64,000 nucleotides of DNA from Escherichia phage vB_vPM_PD114. Every line of letters begins with the position of its first letter. Positions within the stretch are counted from its first letter, which is position 1. Below are positions 20,286-23,391 of the stretch, in pieces. Location of the stretch: the sequence record MH675927.1; one strand, 5' to 3'. A model generated the notes under the pieces. The model searched no databases, was not told the DNA's origin, and was given only the letters and a program-made list of their open reading frames with translations. The translations under genes and the position numbers were made by a program.

Positions 20286-20314
20286 TTGACATTCACTTAG
20301 TTTTTTGTTATAGT
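20286..20314 (+). promoter_or_regulatory. sigma70-like promoter TTGACA-N17-TATAGT
   Basis: Read directly; ~12 nt upstream of next tRNA. Confidence 0.5.
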
Positions 20315-20325
20315 TACTGTGAAAA

Positions 20326-20407
20326 CGGGGTGTATCTCACCTGACTTCTAATCAGGCGTTAACCGAGTAATTGGAGTATGCAGGTTCGAATCCTGTCACC
20401 CCGACCA
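20326..20407 (+). tRNA. tRNA-like with Arg(TCT)-type anticodon arm, atypical D region
   Basis: Acceptor CGGGGTG/CACCCCG, T-arm GCAGG-TTCGAAT-CCTGT, CCA encoded; hairpin CCTGA-CTTCTAA-TCAGG only 7 nt after acceptor, no D-arm found by hand. Confidence 0.4.
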
Positions 20408-20425: not shown

Positions 20426-20455
20426 TTGACAAGCAAGATAGTTTTATGTTAGATT
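20426..20455 (+). promoter_or_regulatory. sigma70-like promoter TTGACA-N18-TAGATT
   Basis: Read directly. Confidence 0.4.
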
Positions 20456-20578: not shown

Positions 20579-20731
20579 ATGAATTATAAAACTATTGGAC
20601 AGGTTGTTACCGGAGTTAAGATTGTAGATAATAAAGTTGTTTATGAGTATTCTAATCTTCAACAATCTGAAGATGGTAAAAATATTCGTATGGTAAAAGC
20701 AGAACAAAAAGATTCCGGTTGTTTTGAATAA
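20579..20731 (+). CDS. hypothetical small protein (50 aa; track ORF 20531-20731 trimmed to avoid tRNA overlap)
   Basis: TAGGAGC...ATG at 20579 right after tRNA-Ser. Confidence 0.3.
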   Translation: MNYKTIGQVVTGVKIVDNKVVYEYSNLQQSEDGKNIRMVKAEQKDSGCFE

Positions 20732-20739
20732 TTAAGAAC

Positions 20740-20825
20740 GGTAGATTGGTGAAATGGTAGCCACAACAGTTTGCTAAACTGTCGTCGGAAACGGCGTGTA
20801 GGTTCAAGTCCTACATCTACCGCCA
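20740..20825 (+). tRNA. tRNA-Ser(GCT), class II
   Basis: Acceptor GGTAGAT/ATCTACC, anticodon arm ACAGT-TTGCTAA-ACTGT, long variable arm, T-arm GTAGG-TTCAAGT-CCTAC, discriminator G, CCA encoded. Confidence 0.6.
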
Positions 20826-20845
20826 AATTTATGCGAGGAGGATGT

Positions 20846-21226
20846 ATGCCAAGCAATGATTATATGCGGGAATACATGAAAACTCGGTGGCAGAAGCGAA
20901 GAGCTTCCGCAATCCTCCAGCTTGGAGGTAAATGTGTTAATTGTGGGTCTGTAGATGACTTGGAATTTGATCATAAAGATTCAAGCGAGAAGAAGTTTTA
21001 TATTAGTCGAATGAGTTCATGCTCTGAGGCTAAATGGCAGGAAGAACTTGCCAAATGTCAACTTTTGTGCCATGACTGTCACATGAAGAAGACAAGAATA
21101 TCCCAAGACATGGGAAACAGAATTAGAACAACGGTGTGTGTTTGCGGGGCAGTATTTTATAGTACAAAGGCTTATGCTGGACATACACGGTGGTGTAAAG
21201 AGTATGCATCGTTAGCCAAGCGGTAA
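20846..21226 (+). CDS. HNH endonuclease (free-standing, inside tRNA cluster)
   Basis: CVNCGSVDDLEFDHKD...CQLLCHDCHMKK...C-terminal Cys/His cluster; RBS GAGGAGG; last ~7 codons overlap the 5' end of the following tRNA. Confidence 0.55.
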   Translation: MPSNDYMREYMKTRWQKRRASAILQLGGKCVNCGSVDDLEFDHKDSSEKKFYISRMSSCSEAKWQEELAKCQLLCHDCHMKKTRISQDMGNRIRTTVCVCGAVFYSTKAYAGHTRWCKEYASLAKR

Positions 21227-21280
21227 GGCACTTGACTTTTAATCAAGGGAGCGAAGGTTCGAATCCTTCACGATGTACCA
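21206..21280 (+). tRNA. tRNA-Lys(TTT)
   Basis: Acceptor GCATCGT/ACGATGT (G1-U72), D-stem GCC/GGC, anticodon arm CTTGA-CTTTTAA-TCAAG, T-arm GAAGG-TTCGAAT-CCTTC, CCA encoded. Confidence 0.55.
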
Positions 21281-21285
21281 AACAC

Positions 21286-21372
21286 GTAGGTATCGCATAG
21301 CGGCAATTGCTGGAGACTGTAAATCTCCTGCCCTTCGGGGCTTCGTTGGTTCGAGTCCAACTACCTGCACCA
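21286..21372 (+). tRNA. tRNA-Tyr(GTA), class II
   Basis: Acceptor GTAGGTA/TACCTGC, anticodon arm GGAGA-CTGTAAA-TCTCC, long variable arm, T-arm GTTGG-TTCGAGT-CCAAC, discriminator A, CCA. Confidence 0.55.
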
Positions 21373-21379
21373 AATTAAA

Positions 21380-21464
21380 GATGGATTGGCCTAGTGGTTG
21401 GGCGACGGACTGTTAATCCGTGAACGAAAGTTCTAGCAAGGTTCAAATCCTTGATCCATCGCCA
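21380..21464 (+). tRNA. class II (Ser-like architecture) tRNA with GTT anticodon
   Basis: Acceptor GATGGAT/ATCCATC, 3-bp D-stem GCC/GGC, anticodon arm ACGGA-CTGTTAA-TCCGT, 15-nt variable hairpin GAAC-GAAA-GTTC, T-arm CAAGG-TTCAAAT-CCTTG, discriminator G, CCA. Confidence 0.45.
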
Positions 21465-21471
21465 GAATTAT

Positions 21472-21548
21472 GGACTTGTAGAGTTAAGGTAAACCCTCAG
21501 TCGCAAAGAGGCTTCTGGAATTGCAGGTATCGAATCCTGCCGAGTCCA
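21472..21548 (+). tRNA. tRNA, anticodon unresolved
   Basis: Acceptor GGACTTG/CGAGTCC, T-arm GCAGG-(T)ATCGAAT-CCTGC with 8-nt loop; anticodon arm could not be folded unambiguously (possible loop GTCGCAA). Confidence 0.35.
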
Positions 21549-21554
21549 ATTATT

Positions 21555-21629
21555 GCTCCTATCGTATAACGGCTATTACGGTTGCCTTGTAAGCAACTTA
21601 TCAGGGTTCGAGTCCTTGTGGGAGCACCA
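21555..21629 (+). tRNA. tRNA-Thr(TGT)
   Basis: Acceptor GCTCCTA/TGGGAGC, anticodon arm GTTGC-CTTGTAA-GCAAC, T-arm CAGGG-TTCGAGT-CCTTG, CCA encoded. Confidence 0.55.
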
Positions 21630-22106: not shown

Positions 22107-22537
22107 AGATTATTTAAATGGAATCGCTAGAGAAAATTTCTCTTTTCGCTCATGGTTTTCTCCTTCAAACTCTAGCGGTTCTTTTTAAGTGATTTTTTAG
22201 TTTATTGGAGATTCACTGCCTTAGTGTGAGCTAAAATCGAGGAGCCATCGAACTGTCTGATTAATGATTTGCGAATCATTATAGTTTTAAGACCCCGGCA
22301 GTTTTATGGTGTACCTCTTGAATGTGAATGATGACGGGTTTATGGTTATCCTGGTCGTTAAATATCCAAAAACCTATGTTCCCCTTGAGGGCTTGCGCAG
22401 GCAATGCCAATAAGTCCTGCATTTTCATTTAAAAGAGAATTTATAATGGAAAAAGATGAACTTAAGTATGCTAAGCCTCTGGCTTCTGCTGCACGAAAAG
22501 CAGTTCGTCACTTTGTGGTAACACTGAAGTAATTTAT

Positions 22538-23366: not shown

Positions 23367-23391
23367 AGCCTCCTTATTGGAGGCTTTTTGC
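23367..23391 (+). terminator. rho-independent terminator AGCCTCC-TTATT-GGAGGCT + TTTTTG at end of tRNA array
   Basis: Perfect 7-bp stem followed by T-run. Confidence 0.6.

Follow-up and report, generated by a model that had tools for sequence, protein, structure and literature searches.

The 64,000-nucleotide stretch of Escherichia phage vB_vPM_PD114 analyzed here (sequence record MH675927.1), which we call the window, carries an array of transfer RNA (tRNA) genes in which an open reading frame (ORF) for an HNH endonuclease runs into the gene for tRNA-Lys, so that 21 nucleotides (nt) belong to both. The ORF is probably a mobile homing endonuclease gene (HEG), and ending at or in the next tRNA is the rule in its family. 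The genes and signals at the locus are the following.

20740-20825, plus strand: tRNA-Ser(GCU), the upstream neighbor, whose 3' end lies 20 nt from the HNH start.
20835-20841, plus strand: Shine-Dalgarno sequence GAGGAGG, 4 nt 5' of the ATG and kept in all five HNH-carrying phages.
20846-21226, plus strand: HNH endonuclease ORF, 126 amino acids plus TAA, with an ATG start.
21206-21280, plus strand: tRNA-Lys(UUU), of the type termed allele 2 below, with a G1.U72 pair and an encoded CCA (ARAGORN; Rfam RF00005).
21206-21226, plus strand: the 21 shared nt, i.e. codons A121-R126 plus TAA, which are also tRNA positions 1-21.

The shared sequence reads GCA TCG TTA GCC AAG CGG TAA (A121 S122 L123 A124 K125 R126 and stop) and covers the 5' strand of the acceptor stem, U8-A9, the 5' strand of the D-stem and the D-loop of the tRNA. 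ARAGORN and Rfam were concordant in placing the 5' end of tRNA-Lys at 21206, the Rfam match (21206-21277, 72.8 bits) being the top tRNA score in the array. In the cloverleaf, G1.U72 and the six Watson-Crick pairs that follow make up an acceptor stem of 7 bp. The D-stem is 3 bp long, and the D-loop has 9 nt, the final three of which are the TAA of the ORF. The first-pass annotation of this DNA had placed an HNH ORF between tRNA-Ser(GCT) and tRNA-Lys with its stop codon inside the D-loop; the ORF coordinates and a match to PHROG 4234 confirm the former, and the cloverleaf the latter. It had also assigned about seven codons (...ASLAKR) to the tRNA, which is right as to the overlap but not as to the count, since these are six sense codons plus the stop, and it had given 21280 as the end coordinate, which belongs to tRNA-Lys and not to the ORF (end 21226). 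Its reading depended on the tRNA not beginning downstream of the ORF stop, and the boundary at 21206 indeed lies before that stop. A mis-called 5' end was ruled out, as the two programs agree and the empty-site alleles described below begin at the same base. In alignments of close homologues the C-terminus is ...WCK plus 0-4 residues, to which the window protein adds KEY and ASLAKR. ASLAKR is therefore a non-homologous tail supplied by the tRNA; as judged from this alignment, the native C-terminus of the HNH protein is three codons 5' of the tRNA, with the stop supplied by the D-loop.

Both the family match and the fold mark the ORF as an HNH endonuclease. The window protein matches PHROG 4234 ('HNH endonuclease') with E=2.9e-25 and nine more HNH PHROGs, and has 349 homologues in a 90%-clustered database and 9683 homologous clusters (50% identity) at E<=1e-3, 1553 of these at E<=1e-10. 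Residues C30, C33, D42, H43, C71, C75 and H79 are invariant in the homologue alignments. The protein has the CxxC...DH...CxxCH signature of zinc-stabilized HNH nucleases, i.e. a catalytic His in a beta-beta-alpha-metal core (approximately residues 28-83) with flanking zinc-binding Cys pairs; the catalytic D42-H43 is encoded at 20969-20974. Further downstream, C98, C100, H113 and C117 (C-x-C-x12-H-x3-C; 21137-21196) probably form a DNA-binding C2HC finger. Family scans of the window protein returned only HNH, zinc-ribbon and weak small-terminase matches, with no GIY-YIG family among them, and a sequence search of solved structures gave marginal hits only. The window copy differs from the copies in relatives by 12-13 nt, which comprise nine synonymous and two non-synonymous codon changes (D77A and Y105H), and this 9:2 ratio therefore indicates purifying selection on the gene. 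That the ORF is not a gene is ruled out by the homology, the ribosome-binding site and the same ratio.

The window region shares 98% identity with Serratia phage KKP_3264 and falls in the phi92-like genus Justusliebigvirus. At 95% identity or more the ORF occurs in only four database records, KKP_3264, EC_OE_11, KKE7M and JohannJBalmer, and the next relative is at 54%; it is labeled 'putative homing endonuclease', overlapping tRNA-Lys, in the records of EC_OE_11 and JohannJBalmer and left unannotated in the other two. The first-pass annotation had proposed a comparison with the tRNA arrays of related phages lacking the ORF, and this revealed a clean empty site. An intact tRNA-Ser(GCU)-spacer-tRNA-Lys arrangement is present in arall, AV123, EmilieFrey, EC.P2, PD06, BME3, PATM and Paula among the relatives, and alignment of occupied with empty sites gives a 372-nt indel at 20835-21207 or, equivalently, 20830-21202. 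The empty site reads ...AAAGATAATTT(T)ATAC/ATCGTTAGC... and the occupied site ...AATTTATAC/GAGGAGG...AAAGAGTATGC/ATCGTTAGC... (slashes mark the junctions). The insert is flanked by an imperfect 5-nt repeat, TATRC (TATAC...TATGC), both copies of which are TATGC in the window.

20830-20834, plus strand: left junction repeat, TATGC in the window and TATAC in the four relatives with the ORF.
21203-21207, plus strand: right junction repeat, TATGC, which includes tRNA positions 1-2.

Because the right copy of the repeat includes tRNA positions 1-2, the insertion point can be resolved only to the interval from 5 nt upstream to tRNA position 2. All five occupied alleles have G at position 1 of tRNA-Lys and all the empty alleles examined have A. 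The left repeat makes an in-frame ATG at 20831 that is specific to the window and lacks a ribosome-binding site. The spacer between tRNA-Ser(GCU) and tRNA-Lys is approximately 136 nt at the empty sites of other genus members. In the window and KKP_3264, 127 nt of it have been lost (junction 20825/20826), which is why the HNH start is only 20 nt from tRNA-Ser; these 127 nt are kept in EC_OE_11, JohannJBalmer and arall. The 136-nt spacer of relatives (L004:1927-2062) folds well (-35.6 kcal/mol, z=-3.6), the fold being closed by a long-range stem, AGUUAUCUUUAA/UUAAAGAUAAUU, and the end points of the 127-nt deletion lie in both arms of this stem.

Comparison of the HNH copies with their flanks argues for movement of the element. 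The copies of KKP_3264, KKE7M and JohannJBalmer are identical over 381 nt, with that of EC_OE_11 1 nt off, and the flanks are 1-4% apart. The variable-site table for the downstream haplotype (21465-21552) places JohannJBalmer with the HNH-less EmilieFrey, and the window, KKP_3264 and EC_OE_11 with the HNH-less arall and AV123; at least two backbones therefore carry the same element, and HNH-less versions of each exist. The window HNH copy is approximately 3% diverged, compared with approximately 1% for the window flanks relative to KKP_3264, which suggests allelic replacement of the window HNH by a copy from a more distant donor. The histories of the HEG and of its flanks are thus incongruent, i.e. 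they point to lateral spread, with a strength of evidence that is moderate given the small sample. We also considered that the HNH gene and tRNA-Lys might have been transferred together from a donor similar to the nearest metagenomic relatives, and found no support for this, the tRNA-Lys of one of these (P0003) being unrelated in sequence to allele 2.

The ORF is therefore probably a free-standing HNH HEG of PHROG family 4234, and mobile. The proposal of the first-pass annotation, that a mobile endonuclease had inserted beside a tRNA gene and now shares sequence with it, is supported by the sporadic presence of the ORF, the empty site, the junction repeat and the tRNA-supplied tail. During co-infection, genomes lacking the HEG would be nicked or cut by the enzyme at or close to the 5' portion of tRNA-Lys allele 2; recombinational repair would then give the recipient a copy of the HEG and of the G1 linked to it. 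Two points weigh against this account: the window protein scores 15.3 bits against the Pfam HNH model PF01844, i.e. below the 21.4-bit threshold (precomputed PF01844 hits are present on several homologues), and the target site is deduced solely from how the alleles are distributed among relatives, a few dozen genomes in all. A further explanation is that the HNH is decaying or domesticated and no longer homes, being a remnant or having another role such as degradation of the DNA of the host or of competitors, or amplification of neighboring tRNAs through recombination. The HNH is scarce in the genus, with no sign of an ongoing sweep, the window copy has D77A and Y105H relative to the other allele, and SegB of phage T4 has a documented second role in amplifying anti-defense tRNA genes (PMC13096335). 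However, the catalytic residues and zinc ligands of the window HNH are intact, the 9:2 ratio of synonymous to non-synonymous changes speaks for a maintained protein, and the identical copies on diverged backbones indicate recent transfer, so that we regard a loss of homing as quite improbable. JohannJBalmer and EmilieFrey, which have and lack the HNH respectively, were both isolated on E. coli K-12 and are in a public collection.

The genus contains two alleles of tRNA-Lys(UUU) that have the same acceptor and T arms and differ in the D-arm, anticodon stem and variable loop, all of the differences being confined to a 36-nt internal patch. The D-arm is TAGCCAAGCGGTAAGGC in allele 2 and TAGCTTAGTTGGTAGAGC in allele 1, and the anticodon stem is CTTGA/TCAAG in allele 2 and AGGGG/CTCCA in allele 1. 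In the INPHARED phage collection, on which the allele statistics are based (an exact-pattern scan of IMG/VR for allele 2 gave one contig), allele 2 is found in 10 records (nine phages) and allele 1 in 28, and the records with an HNH comprise four with allele 2, plus the window, and none with allele 1. The HEG is thus present in 4/9 allele-2 phages vs 0/28 allele-1 records (one-sided Fisher p of approximately 0.002, calculated by hand and uncorrected for phylogeny). Each HNH-bearing backbone has an HNH-less allele-2 counterpart, and the insert and A1/G1 are the only differences between the two near the junction; because of these counterparts allele 2 is favored as the invaded site. From these distributions, we consider the chances to be about even that tRNA-Lys allele 2 is the target that the element invaded.

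The same association could arise by marker exclusion, i.e. the HNH would cut the common allele 1, and the neighboring allele 2 would be a resistant version that replaces allele 1 with or without the HEG; the HEG-less allele-2 phages would then be partial conversion products. The 36-nt patch beside the HEG, lying between identical acceptor and T arms, resembles a conversion tract, alleles 1 and 2 are both found within phages named Justusliebigvirus alia, and T4 SegB and other T4 Seg enzymes have been described as acting comparably on tRNA or neighboring genes (PMC2330249). However, all five HEG-less allele-2 phages have A1, and their spacer is unaltered 11 nt from the patch, on two backbones. 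Marker exclusion would therefore require repeated conversion tracts ending inside the same 11 nt, and the simpler assumption is that allele 2 was already there when the element invaded it; we therefore consider marker exclusion unlikely.

The alleles also differ where the AriB nuclease of the PARIS defense system cuts. Allele 2 keeps the E. coli-like U36-A-A-U-C-A41 there, and the commoner allele 1 has U-A-A-C-U-C, which includes an A41->C change. Such a change has been reported to inhibit AriB cleavage (PMC12409363), and allele 1 may, on this comparison, be a defense-evading tRNA.

We scanned IMG/VR with a protein pattern and obtained 80 loci with relatives of the window protein, 38-58% identical to it mostly over the N-terminal 90 residues. 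A same-strand tRNA lies within 2 kb downstream in 41 of the 80 loci; the HNH stop falls inside that tRNA in 28 loci, with an overlap of 2-39 nt, and in 34 the gap is 20 nt or less. The commonest overlap is 10 nt, in which the stop is formed by U8-A9-R10. When only ORFs ending from -45 to +100 nt of a tRNA start were counted, 28 of 38 HNH ORFs stopped inside the tRNA, vs 15 of 58 control ORFs (at least 60 amino acids, ending near tRNAs in the same loci), an odds ratio of 8 (Fisher p=7e-6). An ORF end at or in the next tRNA is therefore the rule rather than the exception in this HNH family. The arrangement takes various forms in individual relatives: P0003 (64% identical) overlaps tRNA-Lys by 10 nt; in P0004, which has a syntenic array, tRNA-Asn begins with the last base of the stop; the overlap is 39 nt with tRNA-Arg in Mendera and 10 nt with tRNA-Val in GodonK; and mycobacteriophage Cali has an intact unannotated homologue (L099, 892-1320) that overlaps tRNA-Gly by 45 nt.

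The family is also strongly biased in the tRNA that it abuts. Among the ORFs ending within 20 nt of a tRNA, that tRNA is tRNA-Lys (UUU or CUU) in 22 of 34 cases, against a background of 6.8% of the other tRNAs there, and the bias holds on 70%-identity clusters (20/32, p=4e-16). tRNA-Lys is the commonest upstream neighbor of the HNH as well (6/22). The same pattern recurs in the closest relatives from the GTDB genome collection; distant chromosomal relatives in Acidobacteria have no nearby tRNAs. HNH distance correlates weakly with the distance of the adjacent tRNA-Lys (Mantel r=0.245, p=8e-4), which is compatible with long-term linkage and is fitted by vertical inheritance and by joint transfer alike. 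A cargo-vs-target comparison through the DUF2828 gene beside locus L104 yielded distant relatives (identity of 53% or less), with an HNH homologue in 3 of 80 loci. We found no description of a tRNA-Lys bias, or of the frequency of stops in tRNAs, for this HNH family in full-text searches of an open-access library, and the family-level preference for tRNA-Lys may be new; the ORF-end-in-tRNA layout is already known from T4 and T5.

In L013, L024, L054, L061, L089 and Mendera (L005) the HNH gene lies between two tRNA-Lys genes (CUU upstream and UUU downstream) or directly 3' of a tRNA-Lys gene. The abutted tRNA-Lys is the sole tRNA within 2 kb in contigs L019, L102 and L104. The gene orders hint at a two-gene module of HNH and tRNA-Lys. 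Intact HNH homologues are unannotated in many deposited genomes, including many Bixzunavirus records, apparently because of the tRNA overlap.

T4 SegB is a free-standing HEG in the T4 tRNA cluster that cuts inside tRNA genes via T-psi-C, drives inheritance of the T4 tRNA region and is absent from close relatives (PMC2330249). The window HEG shares with SegB its place in a co-transcribed tRNA array of a phage, its absence from close relatives and an ORF end at the downstream tRNA. However, SegB is a GIY-YIG enzyme and the window protein an HNH enzyme; the latter is probably SegB-like in function but not a member of the SegB family. The window family is strongly biased towards tRNA-Lys, whereas SegB recognizes the universal T-psi-C motif, and its homologues, found near tRNAs in many phages, show no preference for an isotype (Chihara et al. 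2026, PMC13096335). The overlap is 21 nt in the window, whereas only the stop codon is involved in segB.

In the T5 reference annotation (NC_005859, 27000-47000) hegC overlaps tRNA-Ser2 by 14 nt and hegD overlaps pseudo-tRNA-Gln2 by 23 nt. Two more T5 genes do likewise, the hypothetical T5.069 with an overlap of 24 nt into tRNA-Asn and T5.057 with one of 6 nt into tRNA-Met, so that it is common for ORFs of this array to end within a tRNA. The window gene resembles hegC and hegD in being an HNH-type HEG in a tRNA array with its 3' end in the downstream tRNA. It differs from them in sequence, as the BLASTP alignments with the window protein span only 8-19 residues (the LExDHKD motif, E=0.01-0.05), which is far from full-length homology. 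They also differ in architecture, hegC and hegD being approximately 194 amino acids long with IPR002711 and IPR010902 noted in the record, and the window protein 126 amino acids long with a C-terminal C2HC finger. For the T5 enzymes F-TflI/II/IV, a control of expression by transcript processing has been proposed (Akulenko et al. 2004, as cited in PMC2330249). HNH genes have been described as the most widespread coding sequences in tRNA arrays and implicated in the diversity of the tRNA repertoire (Morgado & Vicente 2018, PMC5966550; 2019, PMC6409571). These reports concern mycobacteriophages and Mycobacterium, and the Bixzunavirus arrays include relatives of the window protein; the passages of these two papers on array HNH genes do not mention ORF-tRNA overlap or isotype bias.

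The layout of the locus bears on how the gene is expressed. No promoter was found directly upstream of the HNH gene in the window, the nearest upstream site resembling a sigma-70 promoter being the following.

20426-20455, plus strand: TTGACA-18-TAGATT, a consensus match only, upstream of tRNA-Ser(UGA).

This site is likely, by its position, to be the start of a Ser-ORF-Ser-HNH-Lys-Tyr-Asn-Thr transcript, and a terminator-like hairpin lies 3' of the array at 23367. The spacer that could have carried an HNH promoter is deleted in the window. Lacking its own promoter in the window, the HNH gene would be translated from the tRNA precursor. For SegB, Brok-Volchanskaya et al. (2008, PMC2330249) proposed a negative control in which RNase P (ribonuclease P), in maturing tRNA-Arg, cuts between the stop of segB and its final sense codon. 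By analogy, an RNase P cut at 21205/21206 during maturation of tRNA-Lys would take off the last six codons and the stop of the HNH ORF, processed transcripts would become non-stop mRNAs, and full-length protein would come from the unprocessed precursor only. A potentially toxic nuclease would thereby be held at a low level, as proposed for T4 segB. Non-stop mRNAs in bacteria are substrates for rescue by transfer-messenger RNA (tmRNA) and for decay. We put forward such an RNase P brake on HNH expression tentatively, its likelihood being a little short of even.

Several observations weigh against the brake. A hairpin sequestering the ribosome-binding site, as proposed for segB, was not found in the window, the fold of 20826-20905 being no better than that of shuffled sequences (z=-1.3). 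Overlap with a tRNA is quickly expected for any ORF without its own stop, as U8-A9-R10 and the D-loop are rich in stops, and with 26% of the control ORFs in these arrays ending in a tRNA, an overlap need not be regulatory. The same homing HNH could accordingly have an overlap with no regulatory role, as a neutral by-product of insertion near a tRNA or of later loss of the 3' untranslated region. Frames entering a tRNA meet a stop within approximately 10-40 nt, the overlaps fall mainly at 10, 14-15 and 23 nt, the lengths at which the tRNA structure provides stop triplets in the three frames, and 15 of the 58 control ORFs in the same arrays likewise stop in a tRNA. The family can also function without the overlap, since the stop of the PcCB7V relative is its own and lies 44 nt short of tRNA-Glu, and P0002 follows a tRNA-Lys. 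On the other hand, the enrichment over other ORFs is approximately 8-fold (28/38 vs 15/58), and three unrelated nuclease lineages, i.e. the GIY-YIG segB of T4, the NUMOD4-HNH hegC and hegD of T5, and the window family, have converged on ending their ORFs at or in the next tRNA. This recurrence suggests either selection or a shared mechanism of insertion. A neutral overlap is a serious possibility that we rate below even. The three-lineage convergence makes the brake on non-stop mRNAs worth testing.

The window thus adds a selfish nuclease gene, probably active, that is unannotated in two of four related GenBank records, and insertion of the HEG accounts for part of the indel mosaic of the tRNA array. 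tRNA-Lys is a target of the anticodon nuclease PrrC. It is also the target of PARIS AriB, and the tRNA-Lys bias offers a system for asking whether homing endonucleases spread or diversify anti-defense tRNA alleles, comparable to SegB and tRNA-Tyr, which SegB amplifies to escape Septu (PMC13096335). More speculatively, the HNH clade could be a HEG lineage specialized on tRNA-Lys that reshuffles tRNA-Lys alleles, with the stop in the tRNA as a selected governor coupled to RNase P and tmRNA; we think this combination rather unlikely. If it is true, the HEG would be a driver of anti-defense tRNA-Lys diversification in the arms race with the PARIS and PrrC anticodon nucleases and not a passenger, and the governor would link nuclease production to the state of tRNA processing.

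The array around the HNH gene has further features. The tRNAs directly 3' of it (21206-21629) are Lys(UUU), Tyr(GUA), Asn(GUU) and Thr(UGU); the reported targets of AriB are tRNA-Lys, tRNA-Thr and tRNA-Asn, and that of Septu is tRNA-Tyr (PMC13096335). The 90-nt gap between tRNA-Asn and tRNA-Thr (21465-21554) resembles a degenerate tRNA: GGACTTG and CGAGTCC in it can pair over 7 bp like an acceptor stem, and CAGGTATCGAATCCTG is reminiscent of a T arm. Neither Rfam at E<=1 nor any other tool called it as a tRNA. It exists as two haplotypes approximately 25 positions apart. Upstream, Rfam calls a tRNA at 20326-20404 on the plus strand (40 bits) that ARAGORN missed and that is annotated 'tRNA-Undet' in one relative. 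An acceptor stem and a T arm are present in this element and its anticodon loop is CUUCUAA (UCU, Arg), but it lacks a normal D-arm and has a long extra segment. The best sigma-70-like site of the region lies 5' of it (20286-20314, TTGACA-17-TATAGT, 11/12).

Other segments of the array vary in presence among the phages. Approximately 330 extra nt between tRNA-Gly and tRNA-Gln (22107-22537), with only short ORFs (42-49 amino acids), are found in the window, arall, AV123 and EC.P2 and are absent from KKP_3264, EC_OE_11, JohannJBalmer and EmilieFrey. A 50-amino-acid ORF resembling Phi92_gp111 (20579-20731), between the two tRNA-Ser genes, is a further presence/absence polymorphism of the array, occurring in the window, KKP_3264 and arall and absent from EC_OE_11, KKE7M and JohannJBalmer.

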